DNA of 34,413 nt from IMG/VR virus record IMGVR_UViG_2645728091_000016. One strand, written 5' to 3'. The DNA is from a virus (lineage: Duplodnaviria; Heunggongvirae; Uroviricota; Caudoviricetes). Under the pieces are notes generated by a model. The model made no database searches. It was not told where the DNA came from and worked only from the letters and a program-made list of their open reading frames with translations. Positions 2,708 to 33,032 of this stretch are shown here, piece after piece (the stretch's first letter is position 1; each line of letters opens with the position of its first letter). The position numbers and the translations under genes were made by a program.

Positions 2708-3561
2708 GCACCATCCTGAAATGGGCGGGTAATAAAACCGCCATTATGTCCGAACTGAAAAAATACCTTCCTGCTGGCCCGCGACTGGTTGAACCTTTCG
2801 CGGGTTCTTGTGCTGTGATGATGGCGACGGATTACCCCAGCTATCTGGTTGCGGATATTAATCCTGATTTAATCAACCTCTATAAAAAGATTGCCGCTGA
2901 TTGCGAAGCGTTTATATCTCGTGCCAAAGTTTTATTTGAGGAAGCAAACAGTGAGCTGGCTTATTACAACATAAGACAGGAGTTTAATTACTCAACTGAA
3001 ATTACTGATTTCATGAAGGCGATATATTTCCTATATCTCAATCGTCACGGTTACCGTGGTTTATGTCGCTATAACAAGAGCGGGTATTTCAACATTCCCT
3101 ACGGTAATTATAAAAATCCGTATTTCCCTGAAAAAGAAATTCGCGCATTTGCAGAGAAAGCCCAGCGGGCAACGTTTATCTGCGCGAGCTTTGATGAAAC
3201 GCTGGCGATGCTGCAGGTGGGGGATGTGGTGTATTGCGATCCGCCGTATGACGGTACGTTTTCCGGCTATCACACTGATGGTTTCACTGAAGATGACCAG
3301 TATCACCTGGCATCCATTCTTGAACATCGGTCATCAGAAGGACATCCGGTCATTGTTTCTAACAATGACACATCCCTGATTCGTTCGCTGTATCGCAATT
3401 TTACTCACCACTATATCAAGGCAAAACGCAGCATCGGCGTGTCAGCTGGCGAGGGTAAATCTGCAACAGAAATCATTGCTGTTTCCGGGCCGAGCTGCTG
3501 GTTGGGATTTGATCCTTCGCGTGGCGTGGATAGTTCTGCCGTGTACAGAGTGTGTGTATGA
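2704..3561 (+). CDS. dam: Dam-family DNA adenine-N6 methyltransferase
   Basis: [15 protein letters not shown] (SAM-binding motif I) and DPPY (motif IV); ATGA overlaps with both neighbours. Confidence 0.85.
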
Positions 3562-5972
3562 GTCATGACGATATGAACAATTGCAGCGGCTTTAACGAGG
3601 CCGCCGCAGCATTTTCATGGAACGGCTCGAAAAAGGCCATTAACCCTTATCTGGACCCGGCGGAAGTTGCGCCGGAGTCTGCACTTTCAAACCTGATCAC
3701 TCTGTACGCTGCCGATAACGAGCAGGAACAACTGCGCCGCGAGGCACTGAGTGAGCAGGTCTGGGAGCGTTATTTCTTTAATGAATCCCGTGATCCTGTC
3801 CAGCGCGAAATGGAGCAGGATAAGCTCATTAGCCGGGCAAAGCTGGCGCATGAGCAGCAGCGTTTTAATCCGGACATGGTCATTCTGGCGGACGTAAACG
3901 CCCAGCCTTCCCATATCAGCAAGCCGCTGATGCAACGTATTGAATACTTCAGCAGCCTGGGCAGGCCAAAGGCTTATTCCCGCTATTTGCGTGAGACGAT
4001 TAAGCCATGTCTGGAGCGACTGGATTGTGTACGTGACAGTCAGCTATCTGTTTCTTTCCGTTTTATGGCAAGCCATCAAGGGCTGGAGGGTCTGCTGATC
4101 CTGCCTGAAATGAGCCAGGATCAGGTGAAACGCCTGTCCACCCTGGTAGCAGCGCATATGAGCATGTGTCTTGAGGACGCTTGTGGTGATTTGTATGCCA
4201 CCGATGACGTTAAGCCAGAAGAAATCCGCAAGACATGGGAAAAGGTGGCAGCGGAAACCCTGCGTCTGGATGTTATCCCGCCTGCGTTTGAGAAACTTCG
4301 TCGGAAAAGAAACCGCCGCAAACCAGTGCCCTATGAACTCATCCCGGGTTCGCTGGCGCGTATGTTGTGTGCCGACTGGTGGTATCGGAAATTATGGAAG
4401 ATGCGTTGCGAATGGCGGGAAGAGCAGTTGCGTGCTGTCTGCCTGGTCAGCAAAAAAGCATCCCCCTATGTCAGCTATGAAGCCGTGATGCATAAACGTG
4501 AGCAGCGCCGTAAGTCGCTGGAGTTTTTTCGTTCTCATGAACTGGTGAACGAAGACGGCGACACGCTGGATATGGAAGATGTGGTAAACGCCAGCAGCAG
4601 CAACCCGGCGCATCGCCGCAATGAGATGATGGCCTGTGTTAAAGGTCTGGAGCTTATCGCGGAAATGCGCAGTGACTGTGCCGTTTTCTACACTATCACC
4701 TGTCCGTCGCGTTTCCATTCCACGCTCAATAACGGCAGACCAAACCCGACCTGGACAAACGCGACGGTAAGACAAAGTAGCGATTATCTGGTCGGCATGT
4801 TTGCTGCATTTCGTAAGGCTATGCATAAAGCCGAGTTGCGCTGGTATGGCGTGCGGGTAGCTGAGCCGCATCATGACGGTACTGTGCACTGGCATCTCAT
4901 GTGTTTCATGCGTAAAAAAGACCGCCGCGCCATCACTGCATTACTGCGTAAGTTTGCCATCCGTGAAGACCGCGAGGAGCTGGGCAATAACACGGGACCA
5001 CGCTTTAAGTCTGAGCTGATAAACCCGCGCAAAGGTACGCCAACAAGCTATATCGCGAAATACATCAGTAAGAACATTGACGGGCGTGGTCTGGCTGGGG
5101 AGATCAGCAAGGAAACGGGTAAATCCCTGCGTGATAACGCTGAATACGTTAATGCCTGGGCGTCTCTGCATCGTGTTCAGCAATTCCGCTTCTTTGGCAT
5201 TCCGGGGCGTCAGGCTTACCGTGAACTGCGATTGCTGGCTGGTCAGGCGGCAAGGCAACAGGGTGACAAAAAAGCAGGTGCGCCGGTACTGGATAACCCG
5301 CGCCTTGATGCCATTCTGGCTGCTGCTGATGCTGGTTGTTTTGCCACCTATATCATGAAGCAGGGTGGCGTACTGGTTCCCCGTAAATATCACCTCATCA
5401 GAACCGCTTATGAAATCAACGAAGAGCCAACCGCTTATGGCGATCACGGTATTCGTATTTATGGCATCTGGTCACCCATTGCAGAGGGCAAGATCTGCAC
5501 TCATGCGGTGAAGTGGAAAATGGTTCGTAAGGCCGTTGACGTTCAGGAGGCGGCTGCCGACCAGGGCGCTTGCGCCCCTTGGACTCGTGGCAATAACTGT
5601 CCCCTTGCTGAAAATTTGAACCAACAGGAGAAAGATAAATCAGCTGATGGGGACTCCAGAACGGACATTACCAGCATGGATGACAAGGAGTTGCACGATT
5701 ACCTGCACAGTATGAGCAAAAAAGAGCGCCGGGAACTGGCAGCAAGGTTACGCCTGGTGAAACCGAAACGGCGTAAAGACTACAAACAGCGAATTACAGA
5801 CCATCAGCGACTGCAGCTCGTGTATGAGCTGAAGTCCAGAGGATTTGATGGCAGCGAGAAAGAGGTCGATTTACTCCTTCGCGGAGGCAGTATTCCGTCA
5901 GGAGCAGGCCTGCGTATCTTCTATCGGAACCAGCGTTTGCAGGAAGATGATCAGTGGCGGAACCTGTATTAA
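3558..5972 (+). CDS. A: replication initiation endonuclease (P2 gpA-type rolling-circle initiator)
   Basis: About 805 aa from ATG 3558; HUH-type motif TVHWHLM; position after early operon. Confidence 0.9.
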
Positions 5973-6324: not shown

Positions 6325-6558
6325 ATGCGCATTGAAATAATGATCGATAAAGAGCAAAAAATTAGCCAGTCTACCCTGGACGCCCTTGAATCCGAGCTTT
6401 ACCGCAATCTGCGCCCCCTGTATCCCAAAGCGGTAATTCGTATCCGTAAAGGTAGCTCTAATGGTGTGGAACTGACCGGACTGCAACTGGACGAAGAAAG
6501 AAAACAAGTGATGAAAATTATGCAGAAGGTGTGGGAAGACGACAGCTGGCTGCATTAA
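6325..6558 (+). CDS. DinI-family protein
   Basis: MRIEIMIDK...LDALESEL...KIMQKVWEDDSWLH aligns along its length to E. coli DinI as recalled; ATG 6325 with GAGGTGA upstream. Confidence 0.8.
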   Translation: MRIEIMIDKEQKISQSTLDALESELYRNLRPLYPKAVIRIRKGSSNGVELTGLQLDEERKQVMKIMQKVWEDDSWLH

Positions 6559-6560
6559 GA

Positions 6561-6603
6561 AACGTTGCTGGCGTCTGAACTTGCTTCTGACGTCAGCAAC
6601 GTT
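6561..6603. terminator. strong stem-loop (15-bp stem with one G-U pair, 13-nt loop) between convergent DinI-like gene and orf177; putative bidirectional terminator
   Basis: AACGTTGCTGGCGTC...GACGTCAGCAACGTT inverted repeat seen directly; no clean U-tract. Confidence 0.35.
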
Positions 6604-6824
6604 GAACAACTAGTTTAGTGGGGCATTAGTCATGGGGTAAAATACAGTAACCATTATTTTCACTTCCGCTCAGATTTAACCGAACGTTAGTTTTGCTACG
6701 TATGATGGGCTGCAAATTACCTTTTGGGATTTGTGATAGATACGAAAATCCTATTAGATGCTTGTTAGACCGGAAGCGCCACTTCGAACGAAAAGTAATG
6801 GCCACTTATGCCGGTTTAAAAGCC

Positions 6825-7358
6825 TTAACCTTGTATAGTTATTTGAATATTTTCTTCATTAACACCAAAGTATAGGGCTAGCCCTGCTTTTGCCTCCTGA
6901 AGTGTTAACGGCTTAACTACATTTTCTTCTTCTTCTTCTTCGTACTCATCACCCGCTTGATCGACAATCGAATTAGTCGGGGTTAATTTGGGAAGAGCTT
7001 TAAATTCCAACTTGTCAGCCTCAATGCCAATGTCTTTGAGGTTGCGATAAGAAACGGGATTCCGATTGCCATCCCATTGTCCTGGGATGTCAATTTCAGC
7101 ATAAGAATTGATGTTTATGATCCAGCGTTTAGGGTTTTCTGGAGCCCTGCTTACTCCCGAGATTCGACCGATCATAAAAGCATGATGATGTTTTGCTTCT
7201 TGTGATCCCCAGTCCTTTCTCGAATTTTGTACACAAACTAAATATTCGTGCTTAGCTGCATGGCTGGCGTCAAGTCTCCATGCTTGGCTTCCCCCTGTGT
7301 TCAAAATCTCTGTTAAACCACGAGCAGTAAGTACAGTAATACAGTTGGTAGTAGCCAT
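6825..7358 (-). CDS. uncharacterised 177-aa accessory protein (orphan cargo gene; candidate anti-phage function)
   Basis: Clean ORF with ATG at 7358 and TAA stop; AT-rich; opposite strand to flanking phage genes; acidic EYEEEEEEN tract and HHH triplet; no family recognised by eye. Confidence 0.7.
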   Translation of the reverse strand: MATTNCITVLTARGLTEILNTGGSQAWRLDASHAAKHEYLVCVQNSRKDWGSQEAKHHHAFMIGRISGVSRAPENPKRWIININSYAEIDIPGQWDGNRNPVSYRNLKDIGIEADKLEFKALPKLTPTNSIVDQAGDEYEEEEEENVVKPLTLQEAKAGLALYFGVNEENIQITIQG

Positions 7359-7675
7359 TGAATTGTGACCCCGTCTTTTTTAGAAAAATACTGTTGATGA
7401 ATGTAGTTTACGTATTTTTTTATGGAGTAGTCAAGTTAGTATTATGCTCATTATTGGCTGTTTGTTGAGTGTTGTGAGTTGGTACTTTGTGTAGTACCTC
7501 TTGATTTATGATGATTAAATCTAAGTTATGACAAAGGGAGGCAGGGGGAACGCGCAGCGCAAGGTGGACAGGAGGCCATAAGGACTCACTTGAAGTAAGA
7601 AAAGATCGATAAAGCAACAATGCATGTCTATGCCGCATGAATTCGCATGATCGTTTGAGGATCGTTTTAGTTGAG

Positions 7676-7703
7676 GCCCGCCAGGAATGGCGGGCTTTTG
7701 TTT
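7676..7703 (+). terminator. rho-independent terminator GCCCGCC-AGGAAT-GGCGGGC followed by TTTTGTTT
   Basis: 7-bp GC stem plus T-tract read from sequence, inside the 480-bp non-coding stretch. Confidence 0.55.
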
Positions 7704-7744
7704 ATGTCATGCAAGTGCATGAAAACCACTACATAAAGCGGGCA

Positions 7745-7763
7745 GGCGTGGCGGGGATACGAG
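7745..7763. other. putative cos site (cohesive-end sequence) GGCGTGGCGGGGATACGAG
   Basis: First 13 nt match the 186 cohesive end as I recall it (GGCGTGGCGGGGAAAGCAT); GC-rich island in AT-rich DNA, upstream of the Q/P packaging genes. Confidence 0.45.
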
Positions 7764-7864
7764 CGCGCGAAATCCCTCTAATTTGAGCTAATCTGTTGAA
7801 AGTCATCCATTATTAATGATAAAAATTAGATGCGGATAATAAAAGTTAACAAAAGGTTGCAAAA

Positions 7865-8680
7865 TTGAACATTAATTTTGATGTTGTGATCAAGAGCGAT
7901 GATCATCAGGTTGATATGGATTATGGGTTGAAGACCCTGGCAGGAACTTCTAGAGTTGTTTCAACTATGGCTGAGGCAATTTTAAAAAAAGAGGTTTCGG
8001 AAAGAAGAACGAGTGTTAATGATATTAGGACACAGCTAAAGCAGAGTTTTAAAAGCTCTTATGGGCAAAATTTCTGTATTGAAGTTAATGATCCCGTTTT
8101 AAAAAGAAAATTAAAGAAAATGGGACACGATGTTTTTTGCGAAGTTATGTCCTATTATATTTCAGAGTCTATGTTTTTGGAGGCTAATAAATTAAGTTCG
8201 GCTGCTCAGGATGTTGTAAATGATCTTAATGATATAGAAGATAAATTGCTGGAGGTATTACGTCGAGGATTAATTGATATGCATAAAATAACTACAATGA
8301 GTAGTTTTAATGTCGAGCTAAATCATCACCCTCGTGGTAATAGGCAGCGAATTGCAACATTAACTCCGAAGACAGCTAAACATATTACAGAGACCGAAGA
8401 GGGTACTAGTGAATATCAGATTGATGTCATTTTTACTCGTTTTAATTCAATGACAGGTAACGGTCGGCTTATTGTAAGAAATGACGATAAAACAACCGCC
8501 TTTGGTCTTGCAAAAGGATTACGATTTGTTCCTTTGCACTTTAAAAAGAAAATTACTGAGAATCTTCATAAGAACAATGGATTAACTAAGCAAAATTGGC
8601 AATATGTAACGTTAACTGTACATGATTTAAAATTGGCTGGCGGGGAAGTAGTAAAATATTTTATTCATGAGATTTCATAG
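7865..8680 (+). CDS. uncharacterised soluble protein, gene A of a two-gene accessory operon (candidate defence sensor/enzyme)
   Basis: 271-aa ORF from TTG 7865 (AAGG 8 nt upstream); alternative in-frame starts GTG 7886 and ATG 7916; AT-rich; no motif recognised. Confidence 0.65.
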   Translation: MNINFDVVIKSDDHQVDMDYGLKTLAGTSRVVSTMAEAILKKEVSERRTSVNDIRTQLKQSFKSSYGQNFCIEVNDPVLKRKLKKMGHDVFCEVMSYYISESMFLEANKLSSAAQDVVNDLNDIEDKLLEVLRRGLIDMHKITTMSSFNVELNHHPRGNRQRIATLTPKTAKHITETEEGTSEYQIDVIFTRFNSMTGNGRLIVRNDDKTTAFGLAKGLRFVPLHFKKKITENLHKNNGLTKQNWQYVTLTVHDLKLAGGEVVKYFIHEIS

Positions 8681-9383
8681 AATGAAAAGAATAATATATA
8701 TTAGTTTTATCATTATAGTTGTAGTTATATCTATGTATTTTTACAACTTTAATACTGGAAAAGGGTTATCTAAAAGTACTGAGGTTTGGGGACAGTTCGG
8801 AGATTATTTGGGTGGGGTTGTTAATCCCATTCTTACTTTTTTATCAATTGTGTTATTGATTAAATCAATAGATTTACAACGTGATGCTAATGCAAGTATC
8901 ATTAATGAAAATAAGAGGCAGGAAAAGCTCGATTATCTGAAGAATTTTGAAATGCGATTTTATAGTTTGATCGACGCACAACGCACTGCATTCGAAAAGT
9001 TTACATTATTAAATGTTGATGGGGTAAATATAAAAGGAGTTGAAGCTGTAAATAAACTTGAGGATTTTATTTTTAACATGAAGAATGAAGGTAAGAGTAA
9101 GGAGGTTGTTTCTAAATTTATTACAGATTGCGATGTGTCTGAATCAATCTACTCTTCAGTACGGCGCTTTTATTTATTAGTCCGTCTCATAGATGAAAAG
9201 CTGGAACGTGAAGAGCGGGACGAATATTATGAGATACTGATTAATATGACTGATTTTCCGTTGGTTAGATTAATTGTTCTTGCATTATGTGTCTATGATT
9301 GGGATATAATAAAGTATATTGACTCTAGTTCTGTTTTAGCGAAGGATGAGTTGGTACAATATCGTGCATATTTTCAATTGTGA
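8667..9383 (+). CDS. uncharacterised membrane protein with two N-terminal TM helices plus about 170-aa soluble domain, gene B of the operon (candidate abortive-infection effector)
   Basis: ATG 8667 (or in-frame ATG 8682) overlapping gene A stop; hydrophobic segments IIYISFIIIVVVISMYFYNF and VVNPILTFLSIVLLIKSI. Confidence 0.7.
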   Translation: MRFHRMKRIIYISFIIIVVVISMYFYNFNTGKGLSKSTEVWGQFGDYLGGVVNPILTFLSIVLLIKSIDLQRDANASIINENKRQEKLDYLKNFEMRFYSLIDAQRTAFEKFTLLNVDGVNIKGVEAVNKLEDFIFNMKNEGKSKEVVSKFITDCDVSESIYSSVRRFYLLVRLIDEKLEREERDEYYEILINMTDFPLVRLIVLALCVYDWDIIKYIDSSSVLAKDELVQYRAYFQL

Positions 9384-9452
9384 TTTTAATAAGTTCATTG
9401 TTCGAATATGAAGAGGTATAAGGGGAATCTCCCCCCTTATACTTATCTATAG

Positions 9453-10481
9453 TTATGCCAATTGATAATCTATAAAATTAACAACTGTCGCGCCAAGCCA
9501 TTTATTAATCTCTTTTATGCGAATTTGTAATGGAAGAAGTTCATTTATCACAAAAACCTTACTGGCCTTCTCCACATCACCAAACCCGCCAACATTGCTA
9601 GGCATAATTCCCATCATCTGAGGCGGCACGCGGTGCGCTGCCATCATGTCATCGCGACTTACGTTCTTTATGTTCAGAAACTCATCCTTTGCCGCCACTT
9701 CTGACAGCGGGATGATCTGAAGCCCGTCCTTTTTGCCGTTAGGCGAGTACATAAACAGGTTGCGGAAGTTGCCCGGACCTTTGGCGCTTTTCATCGCGTT
9801 GCGGAGGTTGTTCACATCCTCCTGGTTCTGAGCGGCATCGGTCATGTACATTATGAATCCTGCATGGCTGCCATTAATATAATATTTGCGTCGGAACAGC
9901 GTGGCGGACTCGTTGAGCAGGGCTGACGGAATGGCAGAAAGATAACCGGGCAGGCCGTAGATCTCCTGGTTGATATCGGGTTCCATCAGATGAAAGATGC
10001 TGCCTTTCGTGAACTGATACGGCTGGGTTGTCATACCGTATTGCACAAACCAGTAGGTATCCAGGTCTAACCCGCGTCGGGTGTATTTTGCCAGAGCAGG
10101 CTCAAGGGCGATAACTTCACCGAACCGGTTCGTGCGTTTCTCTAGGTAGGCGTTACCAAATACCAGATAGTCCTGCACAAAACGTGAAAAAGCCTGCTGG
10201 CTGAGCAGCGGGTGAGGGATATAGGTGCTGGTCAGAATGTTGCACTTTACTGCAATCGGTGAGCTGTGGTGTACGGCGGCGCGGAATGTTCGCGCCAGGC
10301 CTTCGAAACTCACAGGCGGCTCATACCAGCGGTCCATCTGTACGCATTCCACATAGTCCAGCAGTTCGCGACGGTCCAGAACAGGAACGGGATCGCCGAA
10401 GCTGAATGCTTCGGCTGAAGTCTGGCTTTTATGCTGGATCTGATTCATCGCCGCTGCGCGGTTTTTCTTACTCTTTCCCAT
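9453..10481 (-). CDS. Q: portal protein (P2 gpQ)
   Basis: 342 aa from ATG 10481 (track uses TTG 10484); position and size match P2 Q; overlaps P stop. Confidence 0.9.
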   Translation of the reverse strand: MGKSKKNRAAAMNQIQHKSQTSAEAFSFGDPVPVLDRRELLDYVECVQMDRWYEPPVSFEGLARTFRAAVHHSSPIAVKCNILTSTYIPHPLLSQQAFSRFVQDYLVFGNAYLEKRTNRFGEVIALEPALAKYTRRGLDLDTYWFVQYGMTTQPYQFTKGSIFHLMEPDINQEIYGLPGYLSAIPSALLNESATLFRRKYYINGSHAGFIMYMTDAAQNQEDVNNLRNAMKSAKGPGNFRNLFMYSPNGKKDGLQIIPLSEVAAKDEFLNIKNVSRDDMMAAHRVPPQMMGIMPSNVGGFGDVEKASKVFVINELLPLQIRIKEINKWLGATVVNFIDYQLA

Positions 10482-12247
10482 CAAAAAATCTCCACAATAT
10501 TGCTGGTATTGGCGGATTCGCCCTGCAGCGGTTCGTTAAACAGTGCGTGCATCGTTGCCCAGGCCAGATCGGCGTGGCTGGCTTCTTCGCTGCGGCTGGC
10601 TTCATAGGTCGGGCGGTTGCCACTGGCAGTGGTAGCGCGACGGATTGCCATAAATGACTGCGCAATGTCGGTGTGCCCGGCGTCAAACTCCAGGCGGCGG
10701 TGGCTGATAATGTCGTAGGCCTTGAGTACCAGGGCGTTTTTAACGTTGGGGTTGTAGACAAACTCCCGGACGGCAGGAAAAAACGCTTTCACGTTCTCGT
10801 AAACCCCGTGACCGACGCCGGTCGAGTCGATGCCGATATAGGTCACGTTATACTGTTCGGTCAGTTTTTTGATGGCGTCAGCCTGGGCACGAAAGTCCAT
10901 TCCGCGCCACTGGTGACGCTCAAGAATGCGGAACTTGCCGCCCGGCACGGCTGGCGGAGCCACCACCACGCATCCGGCGCTGTCGCCGTTTTGCGTACCT
11001 TTTGCCGGGTCATAACCGATCCACACTTCGCGCCAGCCAAACGGGCGCAGCGCCAGTGCATGAAAGTCGGTCCTGACTTCCCAGCTGTCCACCATGCACG
11101 CCTGCAGCTCGCTGAGCGGGAACACGGACGCGAGATCGTCCACGAACTCACACATCAGCAGGTTCTGGTATTCGTCCGGGCTGTACTCCATGCGCAACTG
11201 GTCGAGGTCGAACAGGTTACAGCCGCCGCGCACCGCATCTTCCACAGTGACTATCTGGCGGTACTGCCCGTCTGCGCACAGCAGGCCGGGGGCCAGATTG
11301 CTGTGGGACAGGTCGATGTCCACCTTATCGGCTTTGTTGCGCCCTCGGTTGAACAGCGCACCGGACCAGAACGGATAAGCACTGTGTGTCAGGCTGGATG
11401 GCGTGGAAAAATAGGTTTGTCGCCATTTTTTGTGAATAGCCATACCGGAAGCCACTTTGCGCAGCTCCTGGAATTTCGGTATCCAGAAATATTCATCCAG
11501 ATACAGGTTGCCGTGGTAACTCTGGGCCGTGCGGGCATTGGTGCCGAGGAAGTACAGCGTGGCCCCGTTAGGAAGCACCATCGGATCGCCTTTCAGCTCC
11601 ACCTCCACTTCTTTGGCGAAGTCGATGATGTACTGCTTAAAGACGTGGGCCTGAGCCTTGCTGGCGGAAAGGAAAATCTGGTTGCGCCCGGTTAGCAGGG
11701 CGTCAATCAGGGCTTCACGGGCAAAATAGAAGGTCGCGCCGATCTGGCGTGACTTCAGCAGGTTGCGGATGCGGTTGGTTTTTCCGGCTTCCCACCAGTG
11801 GCGCTGGTAGTTGAACATGGAGGAATGGAAGATTTCTTCCAGCTTCTCAATCTGTTCATCGGTGAAAACGTTCTTTTCCGGCTGACGGCGCGGGCCTTTG
11901 TTGCGGTTGGCGACGTTAGGGTTTAAGTCGGCTTCGTTGCCGCCATTGTTAAACTTGCCGATCCGCGCATGGCGCTCCGACTGGCGCGCCAGCAGGTCAA
12001 TCTCTTTGAAATCTTTCCCTTCTTTGTGCTCCTTCATAATGAGCTGGCAGTAGCGTGCGGCGGTGGTGAGCTGCATCTGATCCAGCGGCCCATAGTCACC
12101 CCACTTGTCGCGTTTTTTCCAGCTGTGAACGGTTGCAACTTTCTCGCCCAGCATTTCAGCAATGCGGGCTACGCGGTATCCCTGAAAGTACAGCAGCATG
12201 GCCTGCCGACGGGGATCGAGATCTGCGGGTGTCAGTGTGGTGTTCAT
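10481..12247 (-). CDS. P: terminase large (ATPase) subunit (P2 gpP)
   Basis: 588 aa; N-terminus close to P2 gpP as recalled; divergent from O. Confidence 0.9.
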   Translation of the reverse strand: MNTTLTPADLDPRRQAMLLYFQGYRVARIAEMLGEKVATVHSWKKRDKWGDYGPLDQMQLTTAARYCQLIMKEHKEGKDFKEIDLLARQSERHARIGKFNNGGNEADLNPNVANRNKGPRRQPEKNVFTDEQIEKLEEIFHSSMFNYQRHWWEAGKTNRIRNLLKSRQIGATFYFAREALIDALLTGRNQIFLSASKAQAHVFKQYIIDFAKEVEVELKGDPMVLPNGATLYFLGTNARTAQSYHGNLYLDEYFWIPKFQELRKVASGMAIHKKWRQTYFSTPSSLTHSAYPFWSGALFNRGRNKADKVDIDLSHSNLAPGLLCADGQYRQIVTVEDAVRGGCNLFDLDQLRMEYSPDEYQNLLMCEFVDDLASVFPLSELQACMVDSWEVRTDFHALALRPFGWREVWIGYDPAKGTQNGDSAGCVVVAPPAVPGGKFRILERHQWRGMDFRAQADAIKKLTEQYNVTYIGIDSTGVGHGVYENVKAFFPAVREFVYNPNVKNALVLKAYDIISHRRLEFDAGHTDIAQSFMAIRRATTASGNRPTYEASRSEEASHADLAWATMHALFNEPLQGESANTSNIVEIF

Positions 12248-20690: not shown

Positions 20691-22075
20691 GCACAAAATT
20701 TTATACCCTGCTGACGGATATTGGCGCGGCGAAACTTGCCAGCGCCGCCGCGCTCGGTGTGCCGCTAAAAATTACCCATATGGCGGTGGGCGATGGCAGT
20801 GGAGTATTGCCAACGCCGGACGCAAAGCAGACGGCACTGGTAAATGAGAAACGCCGGGCTGCGCTGAATATGCTTTATATCGACCCGCAGAACAGCAGCC
20901 AGATTATTGCCGAACAGGTGATCCCTGAAAACGAGGGCGGTTGGTGGATACGTGAAGTGGGCTTGTTTGATGAGTCTGGGGCATTGATTGCCGTGGGCAA
21001 CTGCCCGGAAAGCTATAAGCCGCAACTGGCTGAAGGTAGCGGGCGCACTCAGACCGTGCGCATGGTGCTGATTACCAGCAGCACGGACAATATCATCCTG
21101 AAAATCGACCCTGCTGTAGTGCTGGCAACCCGCAAGTATGTGGATGACAAGGCACTGGAGCTGAAGGTGTACGCGGATGATCAGATGGCAAAACATCTTG
21201 CCGCACCGGACCCGCATTCACAGTACGCGCCAAAAGCCAGCCCGACATTTACCGGAACCCCCAAAGCGCCAACGCCAGCGGCGGGGAATAATACCACGCA
21301 GGTTGCGACCACTGCGTTTGTACAGGCGGCACTGACGGCCCTTATTAATGGTGCGCCAGCCACGCTGGACACGCTGAAAGAAATAGCCGCAGCCATTAAC
21401 AATGATCCGAATTTCAGTACCACCATTAACAATGCGCTGGCACTAAAAGCACCGTTGTCGAGTCCGGCACTCACCGGAACGCCAACAGCCCCCACGGCGG
21501 CGCAGTCGATCAACAATACACAGATTGCCACTACGGCTTTTGTGAAATCGGCGATTGCAGGAATGGTGGGTTCTGCACCTGCTGCACTGGATACACTGAA
21601 CGAACTGGCGGCGGCACTGGGGAATGATCCGAACTTTGCCACGACAATGCTTAATGCGCTGGCAGGTAAACAACCGCTGGACAATACGCTTACCAATTTG
21701 AGTGGAAAGGATGTAGCTGGTCTTCTCACATACCTTGGTTTGGGAGAAGCCAGATATGTCATTCAGCGAGGAGCTAATGCCAATGGTGCATGGATACGCT
21801 GGTCAGATGGTGCAATAGAAGTCTTTGGGACGGGTGGTTCTAATAATAATGGACTGGCTAAAGTCGTTTATCCTATTGTGCTTAAGCTTTCACGTTTTAT
21901 CAGCATAGCGGAAAGAATAGGAACGGATTATGGGGGCACATCTAATAACGTTCACGTTTCAATGATCGTGGATGACCAGGTCACTAATACCGGTTTTTAT
22001 GTCCGCTGCCAGATGTACGACGGAACACCATCAACAAGTGCTTTTTCTTGGAGGGTTTATTGTGCGCCTGTTTAA
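20687..22075 (+). CDS. H: tail fibre protein (P2 gpH-type); C-terminal about 113 aa lie inside the invertible segment
   Basis: 462 aa; internal tandem repeats; ATGA overlap with I. Confidence 0.9.
   Translation: MSTKFYTLLTDIGAAKLASAAALGVPLKITHMAVGDGSGVLPTPDAKQTALVNEKRRAALNMLYIDPQNSSQIIAEQVIPENEGGWWIREVGLFDESGALIAVGNCPESYKPQLAEGSGRTQTVRMVLITSSTDNIILKIDPAVVLATRKYVDDKALELKVYADDQMAKHLAAPDPHSQYAPKASPTFTGTPKAPTPAAGNNTTQVATTAFVQAALTALINGAPATLDTLKEIAAAINNDPNFSTTINNALALKAPLSSPALTGTPTAPTAAQSINNTQIATTAFVKSAIAGMVGSAPAALDTLNELAAALGNDPNFATTMLNALAGKQPLDNTLTNLSGKDVAGLLTYLGLGEARYVIQRGANANGAWIRWSDGAIEVFGTGGSNNNGLAKVVYPIVLKLSRFISIAERIGTDYGGTSNNVHVSMIVDDQVTNTGFYVRCQMYDGTPSTSAFSWRVYCAPV
21239..21682 (+). repeat. 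tandem 2 x 222-bp (74-aa) repeat inside the tail-fibre shaft
   Basis: Two protein repeats beginning SPTFTGTPKAPT... and SPALTGTPTAPT... with shared ...TTAFV...DTL.E.AAA...DPNF.TT..NALA motifs. Confidence 0.6.
21723..21748. other. left crossover site (hix/gix-like 26-bp site TTCTCACATACCTTGGTTTGGGAGAA) inside H
   Basis: About 19/26 match to hixL as recalled; inner half plus 9 further bp (21735-21755) repeated in inverted orientation at 23168-23188. Confidence 0.6.
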
Positions 22076-22259
22076 TCCTGTTACTTTGACTGAAGTAATC
22101 CCCGGTCTTCATGACGTGACCGGGGCTGTTGAATTACCAGAAGATAACTGGTTTTTTACTGCATCTGAAATCCCTGAAGGAATGGAAATATCTGTTAACG
22201 AGAAGGGCGAACCCATTCTGATTGAGATTAAACCATCTCAGGTGGAACTGGCCAGATAA
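22062..22259 (+). CDS. small protein downstream of the expressed fibre tip; putative tail-fibre assembly chaperone
   Basis: GTG 22062 with GGAGG 6 nt upstream; 65 aa; overlaps H stop; position equals tfa/gpG/U. Confidence 0.45.
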   Translation: MRLFNPVTLTEVIPGLHDVTGAVELPEDNWFFTASEIPEGMEISVNEKGEPILIEIKPSQVELAR

Positions 22260-22494
22260 CCCCCGGCGCGGTGCTGGTATCTGCTTCCATCACCGCGGCG
22301 ATATTACCAACATCATATTCAGTCATTTCCGGTTCCGGTGGTGCTATAAACTCTCCGTCAGAATAGAACCAACCGACGCCTGCATCTATATGATCAATAT
22401 TTATAATTTCGCAATTAGAGAATAAATCACCCTCTCCATCCCAGATAATAATATTTTTCACCACGCCATGTTCAATCAGAGCAAAATTACTCAT
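22228..22494 (-). CDS. small protein paired with the alternative fibre tip; putative tail-fibre assembly chaperone
   Basis: 88 aa; ATG overlaps stop of the alternative fibre cassette (ATGA). Confidence 0.5.
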   Translation of the reverse strand: MSNFALIEHGVVKNIIIWDGEGDLFSNCEIINIDHIDAGVGWFYSDGEFIAPPEPEMTEYDVGNIAAVMEADTSTAPGVIWPVPPEMV

Positions 22495-23186
22495 CAGGCA
22501 TACTCCTCAACAATAACTATTCCCGGGGCACCGTCACCTCCCGATTGAGCCTCACTTCCAGCAGGTGCGCAGGCTCCGCCTCCGCCAGCACCAAAGCCCT
22601 CAGCTTTACCACCACCACGTCCGCTGAATGATGAAGAACTTGCACCACCTATACCGCCTGAACCTAATGGTGTATCCCCCCCGGTACCACCTGCTACAGC
22701 TTTAACAGAGATAACCATTGCTCCTGGTGTTTTTGCACTACAGCGAAATGCTCTTAGTACAGTCCCGGACGATGTCGGACTGGCACCCCATGAAATACCC
22801 TGAATATATGATGTGTTTGCAGATGCTCCCCCCGCGCCACCGCCTGTACCACCAGGTGCAGTTATCATGGAACCGAAATAAGTTGTGCCACCTTCACTAC
22901 CTGAATTTCTTCCGGCTCCCCCCCCTTTACCTGCAGCACCGATAATAACGTTGACTTCGAAATCATTATCAACCTCGAAAAATGCTTCAATAAATGCGCC
23001 GCTCAATCCAGCTCCGGCTGTTGCCTGTTGATTTTCTGTTGTTTCAGGAACCCCACCGCCGCCGCCACCGCCACCAGAGGCAATGACCCTTATCTTTTTT
23101 GTCCCTGGTGTTGGGATATATTTTCCAGAGCTTTTAAAAATATTCGTGTTTAACAAACGACCAGAGAATCTGGCTTCTCCCAAACC
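22494..23186 (-). CDS. promoterless alternative tail-fibre C-terminal cassette (Gly-rich), expressed only after inversion fuses it to the constant part of H
   Basis: Open frame on minus strand beginning at the right crossover site with GLGEARF; contains SGGGGGGGGV run and many GGxGG repeats. Confidence 0.65.
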   Translation of the reverse strand, partial: GLGEARFSGRLLNTNIFKSSGKYIPTPGTKKIRVIASGGGGGGGGVPETTENQQATAGAGLSGAFIEAFFEVDNDFEVNVIIGAAGKGGGAGRNSGSEGGTTYFGSMITAPGGTGGGAGGASANTSYIQGISWGASPTSSGTVLRAFRCSAKTPGAMVISVKAVAGGTGGDTPLGSGGIGGASSSSFSGRGGGKAEGFGAGGGGACAPAGSEAQSGGDGAPGIVIVEEYA

Positions 23187-23200
23187 AACGTTTAAGAAAA
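23175..23200. other. right crossover site (hix/gix-like, inverted relative to left site)
   Basis: TTCTCCCAAACCAACGTTTAAGAAAA; inner half is the reverse complement of the left site inner half. Confidence 0.6.
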
Positions 23201-23255
23201 TGCAGAGGTAACAGCTAACTGGCATCATCTCCGGTTTTTATTCAGGGGGATGATC

Positions 23256-23822
23256 ATGCTTATTGGCTATGTACGCGTGTCAACAAATGACCAGAACACC
23301 GATTTGCAACGTAATGCACTGAACTGCGCGGGATGTGAGCAGATTTTTGAGGACAAAATCAGTGGCACTAAGTCCGACAGACCGGGGCTGAAAAAACTAC
23401 TCAGGACACTATCGGCAGGAGACACGCTGGTTGTCTGGAAGCTGGACAGGTTGGGGCGCAGTATGCGGCATCTTGTTACGCTGATAGAAGAGTTGCGCCA
23501 GCGTGGTGTGAATTTCAGAAGCCTGACTGACAGTATTGATACCAGTACCCCAATGGGCCGTTTCTTTTTTCATGTCATGGGTGCCCTGGCTGAAATGGAA
23601 CGCGAACTGATAGTTGAACGTACCAGGGCAGGGCTGGCTGCAGCTCGTGCCAAAGGCAGAGTAGGTGGACGCCGTCCTAAGTTGACCACCGAACAGTGGG
23701 CACAGATTGGGCGTTTACTCGAGGCCGGAGAATCAATACAGCGTATTGCACTGATTTTTGATGTAGGCGTTTCTACCATTTATAGAAAATTTCCGGCAAA
23801 TAAGATCAATGAATCCCCCTGA
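23256..23822 (+). CDS. serine-recombinase DNA invertase (Hin/Gin/Cin/Pin family)
   Basis: MLIGYVRVST...DQ...LVVWKLDRLGRS catalytic-domain motifs and C-terminal HTH; ATG 23256 after GGGGGA. Confidence 0.9.
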   Translation: MLIGYVRVSTNDQNTDLQRNALNCAGCEQIFEDKISGTKSDRPGLKKLLRTLSAGDTLVVWKLDRLGRSMRHLVTLIEELRQRGVNFRSLTDSIDTSTPMGRFFFHVMGALAEMERELIVERTRAGLAAARAKGRVGGRRPKLTTEQWAQIGRLLEAGESIQRIALIFDVGVSTIYRKFPANKINESP

Positions 23823-23871
23823 ATCAGCATTATGTTGATTATCCCTGCAAGCAGACAAATACCGTTATTTT

Positions 23872-31187: not shown

Positions 31188-31236
31188 CAACAAAAAACCC
31201 ATCAACCTTGAACCGAAATGGCGGGGTTGATGGGCT
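31188..31236 (-). terminator. rho-independent terminator (10-bp stem CCCATCAACC/GGTTGATGGG, minus-strand T-tract) downstream of ybjL
   Basis: Inverted repeat at 31198-31207 / 31225-31234; on the minus strand it is followed by TTTTTTGTTG. Confidence 0.5.
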
Positions 31237-31346
31237 CCACAAAATGGGGACATCAAAGAAAAGCAGTGGCACTAATTAAGACTGATGCCCTGCGGAAAAG
31301 TTCTGCGGTTGTGCAAAAAAATTTCATTTTCAGGGCAACTTCAGTT

Positions 31347-33032
31347 TTATCCTAATCCTGGCCATACCATGACGATGATTGTCCCTGCCAGCGTCAGCAG
31401 GACGTTGGCGATTGCATAGGTGCCCGCATAGCCCAGCGCCGGGATGTTACTGCGAGCTGTATCACTGATGATCTCCATTGCCGGCGCGCAGGTGCGTGCG
31501 CCCATCATTGCGCCGAACAACAGTGCGCGGTTCATTCGCAATACATAAGCACCGAACAAGAAACAGATAACCACTGGCACAAGACTGACAATCAATCCGG
31601 CAATCAACATCTGACCGCCAATCGCGCCCAGGCCGTTATTAATACCGCTACCGGCGCTCAGACCAACGCCTGCCATAAACACCATTAAGCCGAACTCTTT
31701 CACCATGCTTAATGCACCCTGCGGAATGTAACCGAAGGTCGGGTGGTTAGCGCGCATAAATCCCAGCATAATTCCGGCGAATAACAACCCGGCAGCGTTC
31801 CCCATGCCGAAACTGAATGTGCTGAACTGGAAGGTGATCATCCCGATCATCAGCCCAATAACAAAGAAGGCGCAGAATGCCAGCAAGTCAGTGACCTGGC
31901 TGTGAATCGAGATAAAGCCGATGCGATCGGCGATGGTTTTTACGCGACGGGCATCGCCGCTGACTTGTAAAACGTCACCTTTGTTAAGCACGACGTTGTC
32001 ATCTATCGGCATCTCAATCTGGCTACGAATGACGCGGTTAAGGAAGCAACCGTGATCGGTCAACTTCAGTTGTGCGAGACGTTTGCCAACGGCGTTATGG
32101 TTTTTAACGACCACTTCTTCAGTGACGATACGCATGTCGAGAAGGTCACGATCGAAAACTTCTTTGCCGTTACGGAAGCTGGGATCGAGTCGTGCGTGGG
32201 CGTCGGGATAGCCTACCAACGCTATTTCATCGCCCATTTGTAGCACAGCATCACCGTCTGGATTTGCCAGAATCCCGTTACGTCGAATACGTTCAATGTA
32301 GCAGCCAGTTTGTCGATAAATACCCAGTTCACGCAGATTTTTGCCGTCGGTCCAGGCCACCAGCTCCGGGCCGACGCGGTAGGCGCGGATCACCGGTAAA
32401 TAAACCTTACGGTTGGCATCAGTGTCCAGGCCACGTTCGCGGGCGATTTGCTGGGCGCTGGTCTGTAAGTCCTGATGCTGCAATTTCGGCAAGTAACGCG
32501 CACCAACAATCAAACTCACCAGACCGATTAAATAGGTTAAGGCATACCCGAGGCTCAGATTATCCAGTGCCAGTGAGAGCTGCCTGCTTTCCATGCCGGA
32601 ATGACGCAGTGTATCGCCAGCACCGACCAGAACCGGTGTCGACGTCATAGAGCCAGCTAACATACCGGCCGTCAGGCCAATATCCCAGCCAAACAGCTTA
32701 CCTAACCCTAAGGCGATCACCAGCGCACTGCCAACCATCACCAGTGCTAACATTAGGTAATTTTTCCCATCGCGAAAAAAAATGGAAAAAAAGTTCGGTC
32801 CGGCTTCGACCCCGACGCAGAAAATAAACAGCATAAAGCCAAGATTAAGCGCGTCGGTGTTAATGCTGAAATGTTGTTGGCCTAATAACAGCGATACGAC
32901 TAAAACGCCAATGGAATTACCCAGTTGGATCGAACCAAGTCGTAATTTCCCGAGACATAGCCCAAGCGCGAGGACCACAAATAATAACAGAATGTAATTC
33001 CCATTTAACAATTCGGCGACGTTTATATTCAC
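31347..33032 (-). CDS. ybjL: putative AAE-family transporter YbjL (two TrkA-C/RCK_C domains)
   Basis: 561 aa; sequence recognised as E. coli YbjL. Confidence 0.9.

Follow-up and report, generated by a model that had tools for sequence, protein, structure and literature searches.

The 19-nt sequence GGCGTGGCGGGGATACGAG, read at exactly positions 7745-7763 (plus strand) of the 34,413-nt stretch of viral DNA analysed here (hereafter, the window), is very probably the cos nicking site of an apparently intact P2-like prophage (Peduoviridae, Fels-2/E. coli HS type) located beside rybB-ybjL in an E. coli-type chromosome. A preliminary description had already proposed a putative cos site at these positions, and this proposal is supported by an ungapped alignment of the flanking DNA, by the ends of related phage records, and by the publication of the identical 19-mer as the cos of phage SEN8 and of the prophage of E. 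coli HS (hereafter, HS). The feature is already known, since its exact sequence is found in the literature and in GenBank annotation, and the call, while right, is ordinary. Knowledge of packaging in the P2 family is left unchanged by the site, which defines where the virion chromosome of this prophage begins and ends and is thereby of use for annotation, for the genome start coordinate, and for cosmid or transduction design. The coordinates of the site, of the elements around it, and of the genes discussed below are collected in Table 1.

Table 1. Features of the cos region and packaging genes in the window; offsets are counted from the first base of the 19-mer
Feature	Position	Strand	Details
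gpA	3552-5972		Expected Pfam family
Whole conserved cos block, phage backbone between two variable cargo regions	7622-7773	+	152 nt
Three distal GCATG boxes	7622-7626, 7635-7639, 7645-7649	+	-123, -110, -100
Tandem 11-nt repeat, GATCGTTTGAG / GATCGTTTTAG	7649-7670	+	-96 to -75; one GATC per copy
Intrinsic-terminator-like hairpin	7673-7698	+	11-bp stem, T-run
55-bp cos core, TGCATG-AAAACC-...-AAAGCGGGCA, 19-mer, CGCGCGA	7716-7770	+	-29 to +26; ungapped alignment
Proximal GCATG box, then AAAACC (7722-7727)	7717-7727	+	Box at -28; alignment
Left nick-flanking half-site, GCGGGCA (CGGGC-N, then predicted nick)	7738-7744	+	Read from sequence
19-nt cohesive-end sequence, GGCGTGGCGGGGATACGAG	7745-7763	+	Identical to SEN8 cos and to read-terminus-mapped HS cos
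Right nick-flanking half-site, 5'-TCGCGCG (CGCGC-N, then predicted nick)	7764-7770	-	Bottom strand
Portal protein, P2 gpQ homologue, 343 aa	9453-10484	-	Pfam Phage_portal; 93.5% to HS
Large terminase subunit, P2 gpP homologue, 588 aa	10481-12247	-	Pfam Terminase_5, Terminase_6N, Terminase_6C; 99.8% to HS
Small terminase subunit, P2 gpM homologue, 216 aa	14299-14949	+	Pfam Phage_term_smal; 99.1% to HS

Prophage context and packaging genes

Over most of its length, the window is ~96% identical to Peduoviridae of Klebsiella and Escherichia (such as 4LV2017, KP12, and vB_EcoM-813R9), and it is colinear at 96-98% identity with the HS prophage, including the host flank ybjL-ybjM-grxA-ybjC and the same rybB/ybjL site. 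It departs from HS only in three regions (6557-7621, 7774-9540, and 21151-23838), the last of which corresponds to the distal region for the tail fibre and its assembly, where a swap of host range has presumably taken place. The cos block is surrounded by a full P2-like gene set, which comprises a gpM/gpP-type terminase encoded on the same element as cos as well as the scaffold gpO and the capsid protein gpN, both with the expected Pfam families. The site lies between the gpA side and the 3' end of the gpQ gene, in the same order as in P2, 186, and HS, and 1.7 kb of cargo is inserted in the window between cos and the portal gene, unlike in 186, where no cargo separates the two. The preliminary description had placed the site upstream of the packaging genes, as expected in P2-family phages, a wording that is imprecise in that the portal and large terminase genes (9453-12247) are encoded on the minus strand and cos lies beyond their 3' end, although the arrangement itself is indeed that of P2 and 186.

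The host small RNA gene RybB (Rfam, 105 bits) is found at 31189-31267 on the minus strand, at the right prophage boundary. The published end of the HS prophage (948289) maps to ~31202 in the window, within the 3' end of rybB, so that the apparent integration site of the phage is in or at the rybB terminator, adjoining ybjL (31347-33032). This cos core is also present in the corresponding part of the chromosomes of the common laboratory strains E. coli BL21, C43(DE3), and W.

In P2, gpM and gpP cut cos on replicated circular DNA by staggered nicks 19 nt apart, and the resulting overhangs reanneal after injection. For the prophage in the window, the phage DNA would be circular after induction and excision, and the terminase made of its gpM and gpP would recognise the ~150-bp cos block, nicking at 7744/7745 on the top strand and at 7763/7764 on the bottom strand to leave 5' overhangs. 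The product would be a linear chromosome with 19-nt 5' overhangs, 5'-GGCGTGGCGGGGATACGAG at the left end and its complement at the right end, which would be packaged into gpN proheads through the gpQ portal and whose ends would, after injection, anneal and be ligated back to a circle.

The site could instead be a cos by descent only, a functionally dead relic in a defective prophage. Cryptic P2-like prophages are common, the integrase falls outside the window, and the base at +26 is off consensus (A in the window, C in most relatives, with other natural variants also occurring at this position). However, the packaging and morphogenetic reading frames are full length and carry the expected Pfam domains, the element is colinear with the HS phage, which is inducible, and its cos core is identical to that of HS at all but one of 55 positions, all of which makes a dead relic quite improbable.

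Predicted position of the cohesive ends

The 186 cohesive-end sequence on which the initial identification relied proves to be correct: bases 1-19 of NC_001317, annotated as "cos; cohesive end", read GGCGTGGCGGGGAAAGCAT. Compared in register with published cos sequences, the 19-mer of the window is identical to that of 186 at 15/19 positions, including all of the first 13 nt as had been stated, and to that of P2 (NC_001895, cosL 1-19, GGCGAGGCGGGGAAAGCAC) at 13/19. The shared 13-mer, GGCGTGGCGGGGA, has a single exact occurrence in the window, where ~0.001 would be expected by chance (2 x 34,413 / 4^13); when up to two mismatches are allowed, three matches are found against an average of 1.0 in shuffled sequences, the two extra matches being at chance level. 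More generally, the 19-mer has the form GGCG(A/T)GGCGGGGA followed by 6 nt, as do the annotated cos sequences of P2, 186, PSP3, EtG, and SEN8. The downstream 6 nt had been noted to differ from 186, and they do so at positions 14, 16, 17, and 19, but the uncertainty about the overhang that had been drawn from this difference does not hold: the differing last six bases belong to a separate cos variant, common and published before, that of Fels-2 and HS.

Most decisive is the experimental evidence from reads of the HS prophage. After mitomycin C induction of E. coli HS, Zünd et al. (PMC8008629) located the prophage "E. coli HS phage 1" at 916812-948289, and their Supplementary Table 4 gives as its cos the identical 19-mer at 926016-926034, obtained by "StartSite analysis/phageTerm", a call that rests on total DNA of induced cultures and not on purified virion DNA ends. 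We checked these positions in NC_009800, which read the same 19-mer. HS thus shares with the window the 19-mer, 54/55 positions of the core, a nearly identical terminase (Table 1), and the integration site, and differs from it in the cargo on either side of cos, in the base at +26, and in a few substitutions located distally in the block, whose 152 nt are 89.5% identical in the two. Because the terminase, the core, and the 19-mer are the same as in HS, the overhang is very probably 7745-7763.

The linear ends of several phage records coincide with this position. The record of Salmonella phage SEN8 (KT630647) has the equivalent of 7744 as its last base and opens with the identical 19-mer, labelled "putative cos site", and the SEN8 genome announcement (PMC5427200) gives the same sequence as the cos site; in a full-text search, this paper was the only one whose text contains the 19-mer, the HS instance being in a supplement. 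The records of PSP3 and EtG end at the equivalent of 7744/7745, and both start with the 186 sequence, with bases 1-19 annotated as cos. The Smp131 record starts at the equivalent of 7745 with GGCGTGGCGGGGAGACGAG.

Could the cos region be genuine and the nicks nevertheless displaced, so that the overhang is not exactly 7745-7763? Positions 14-20 are unlike those of P2 and 186, so the context of the bottom-strand nick differs, and the ends of the SEN8, Smp131, and Cartapus records were set by analogy, not by experiment. Against this, PhageTerm and the analysis of read starts yielded exactly GGCGTGGCGGGGATACGAG for HS, and the GCGCG motif at +21..+25 keeps its register in all cos variants. Displacement of the nicks is accordingly very improbable, still more so than a dead relic, and the cohesive ends predicted by comparison with these phages almost certainly coincide with 7745-7763.

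Architecture of the conserved cos block

The 152-nt block around the 19-mer is conserved at 88-95% in 94 phage records, among them Fels-2, SopEPhi, RE-2010, SEN8, Cartapus, many Klebsiella prophages, and Yersinia and E. coli phages. It was found by megablast in 1272/5426 complete E. coli genomes, compared with 1263 for a 40-nt core; as megablast seeds on the core for both queries, the two counts do not single out genomes with the core alone, as expected for satellites. Fels-2, SopEPhi, RE-2010, Cartapus, and the Klebsiella 4LV2017-like prophages have the same cos type, located between DinI/cargo genes and the portal gene. The 19-mer and the CGCGCG that follows it are invariant in Fels-2, SopEPhi, and Yersinia MLG42, and the record of Escherichia 500465-1 shows only a one-base gap. 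In 48 IMG/VR loci with the TACGAG cos type, columns are conserved between -124 and +26, counting from where the 19-mer starts, and no conservation is seen beyond +26.

This limit also bears on the proposal that the conservation is due to a small coding gene and not to a DNA site. A 49-aa ORF (7637-7786) does span the site, and several records annotate a "hypothetical protein" there, but conservation ends inside the ORF, whose C-terminus differs in every cargo context; moreover, the same DNA motifs occur in register in P2, P4, and 186 despite different intervening sequence, and five phage records have an annotated cos at the equivalent position. We therefore rejected the ORF as the cause of conservation, a coding explanation being the least probable of those considered.

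The site had also been described as a GC-rich island within AT-rich DNA. The surrounding DNA is AT-rich, with 41% GC on the left (6557-7621) and 33% on the right (7774-9452), and a short stretch around the site is indeed GC-rich (72% for 7735-7770, 74% for the 19-mer); nevertheless, the conserved 152-nt block has 52% GC, like the whole window (51.4%). The island-like appearance arises because AT-rich cargo flanks the cos block and reflects no special property of cos.

We aligned the window with HS, 186, P2, and P4 without gaps, anchoring the alignment at the annotated cut and extending it 130 nt leftwards and 60 nt rightwards. The architecture is in register in all five sequences, with GCAT boxes at approximately -123, -110, -100, and -28, AAAACC at -23, AAG-N-GGGC-N directly adjoining the cut, the 19-mer, and then N-GCGCG. 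Over the 55-bp core, identity to the window is 54/55 for HS, 43/55 for 186, 41/55 for P2, and 42/55 for P4. The window thus has the conserved core of the family (TGCAT-AAAACC...AAGNGGGCN, the 19-mer, and NGCGCG, ~55 bp); a 55-bp core shared by P2 and P4 is described in three papers (PMC3931495, PMC5694545, and PMC9594776), all of them crediting Ziermann & Calendar 1990. The cos of 186 and PSP3 resembles that of the window in its first 13 nt, in the AAAACC...AAAG(C/T)GGGCA left flank, in the GCGCG right flank, in the spacing of the GCAT boxes, and in genomic position, and is unlike it at +20 in addition to the four positions of the 19-mer given above. The cos of P2 and P4 is likewise a 19-nt GC-rich 5' overhang site with similar architecture and spacing, whereas it differs at 6/19 positions and belongs with another terminase lineage.

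The three distal GCATG boxes form the densest GCATG cluster in the window, and GCAT is present at equal distances from the cut in P2, P4, and 186. GCAT boxes occur at those distances in nearly all of 119 listed IMG/VR cos loci, which represent nine 19-mer variants, compared with 0.6% at control offsets. These phased boxes to the left of the nick are candidate binding sites of the terminase, probably of its small subunit. The proximal box is the right arm of a palindrome, CATGCA-AG-TGCATG (7708-7721). Since only 7 nt are conserved on the right, with unrelated cargo directly after them, the elements for recognition (GCAT boxes and AAAACC) would be confined almost entirely to the left side of the nicks.

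A CG(G/C)GC pentamer is found one base outside each predicted nick, CGGGC-A on the top strand and CGCGC-G on the bottom strand, making a partial dyad. On the right side, GCGCG occurs at +21..+25 in 118/120 listed IMG/VR cos loci, a position that was not imposed by the search pattern. These CG(G/C)GC-N half-sites may guide the nuclease.

Two further elements of the block are less widely shared. The tandem repeat at 7649-7670, of the form GATCGTTT(G/T)AG, is specific to the TACGAG cos type, in most of which it is kept, and is missing from P2 and 186. The hairpin at 7673-7698 is present at an equal distance in HS, 186, and P4, absent in P2, and often weak in P2-type loci. We rejected it as a structural part of cos, and it is not required for cos function because P2 is without one; it probably stops the rightward DinI/cargo transcript ahead of cos.

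Cos variants, satellites, and flanking cargo

To the left-flank pattern used to sample IMG/VR, which left positions 5 and 14-19 free, 120 matches were listed, a non-random sample. Nine different 19-mers occur among these 120 loci: ..ATACGAG, as in the window, is the commonest (47/120), followed by the P2 type (39), the 186 type (16), ..ATAGCAT (8), and five rarer ones. The TACGAG/TACGAT loci encode gpP 92-99.8% and gpM at least 81% identical to those of the window, while all the other cos types in the sample have gpP only 61-64% and gpM 48-52% identical, the gpM range in the 186-type lineage being ~49-52%. As TACGAG-type cos goes with gpP of at least 92% identity and the other types with 61-64%, the six differing bases constitute a lineage-specific cos variant. 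The window belongs to the Fels-2/HS variant (..ATACGAG then C), with the exact 19-mer, CGCGCG, and a gpP well above 92% identity to that of HS. That cos variant and terminase lineage go together may be due to simple co-inheritance and not to a functional match.

IMG/VR contains a dozen or more discrete variants of the cos 19-mer, nine in the pattern sample and others beside psu. Intermediate variants include ..ATAGCAT, also present in Pectobacterium zantedeschiae, and ..AGAGCAT, which is frequent among diverged Psu-type satellites. The base at +20 varies together with that at position 19 (..GAG then C versus ..CA(C/T) then T). A contig scan with GGGCNGGCGNGGCGGGGA was dominated by chance matches in high-GC genomes (118 of the 120 listed) because this pattern is very GC-rich; the only real cos among these 120 were those of Lelliottia, with the same 19-mer, and Pectobacterium, with ..ATAGCAT.

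The cos of a P4-like satellite lies less than ~170 nt downstream of psu on an 11-kb element without capsid genes, a description that the site in the window does not fit. Among the matches listed, a non-random sample, the TACGAG variant was found in 0/76 Psu-encoding (P4-like) loci, of which 58 have the P2-type cos and the remainder ..AGCAT or ..AGCAC variants; all Psu-linked cos sites are ~165 nt after psu. By comparison, the TACGAG/TACGAT type accounts for 49/120 of the listed loci found by pattern, with phage genes beside cos in 47 of those 49 (49/120 versus 0/76, Fisher p ~4e-13, both samples being non-random). The papers on P4-like satellites that we examined do not discuss cos variants. 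We regard it as doubtful that the TACGAG variant and its terminase, diverged from the P2/186 lineages (gpP ~63% and gpM ~49% identity), represent a separate packaging-specificity class unused by P4-like satellites. If this were true, divergence of cos would serve against piracy by satellites, either as an escape or as a barrier. A catalogue of cos variants, with their strict linkage to terminase, would make the packaging specificity between helper and satellite testable.

The cos block is a conserved anchor between two P2-like cargo hotspots known to hold anti-phage genes, which explains the local composition. Rousset et al. (PMC9122126) described a hotspot where anti-phage genes of P2-like phages are located, namely the cos-proximal region from gpA to gpQ. 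In the window, the right cargo (7774-9452) contains two plus-strand genes between cos and the portal gene (ORFs 7865-8680 and 8667-9383), which correspond to PHROGs 13337 and 8999, both of unknown function, with a sub-threshold Pfam match to DUF7946. The same pair is found in E. coli PM4-5, and the supplementary table of PMC9122126 lists it as "hypothetical + hypothetical" (WP_113440963 + WP_001405613). The left cargo (6557-7621) contains a minus-strand ORF (6825-7358) encoding a 177-aa protein (phrog_37247) that has no Pfam match. PADLOC gave no match for the cargo proteins on either side of cos, including this one; the right-hand module is a candidate anti-phage system, as yet uncharacterised.

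The left cargo is missing from HS, which has another hypothetical ORF of 678 nt there, and PM4-5 has no insertion at this place, while eight E. coli genomes have the left cargo together with the cos block, at 98.6-99.6% identity. From one genome to another, the left and right cargoes are combined independently, and homology to the genomes with the same left cargo stops at 7769 (+25), the edge of the cos core; this edge and the independent assortment agree with the proposal, made before (PMC9122126), that the exchange of cargo is promoted by cos ends.
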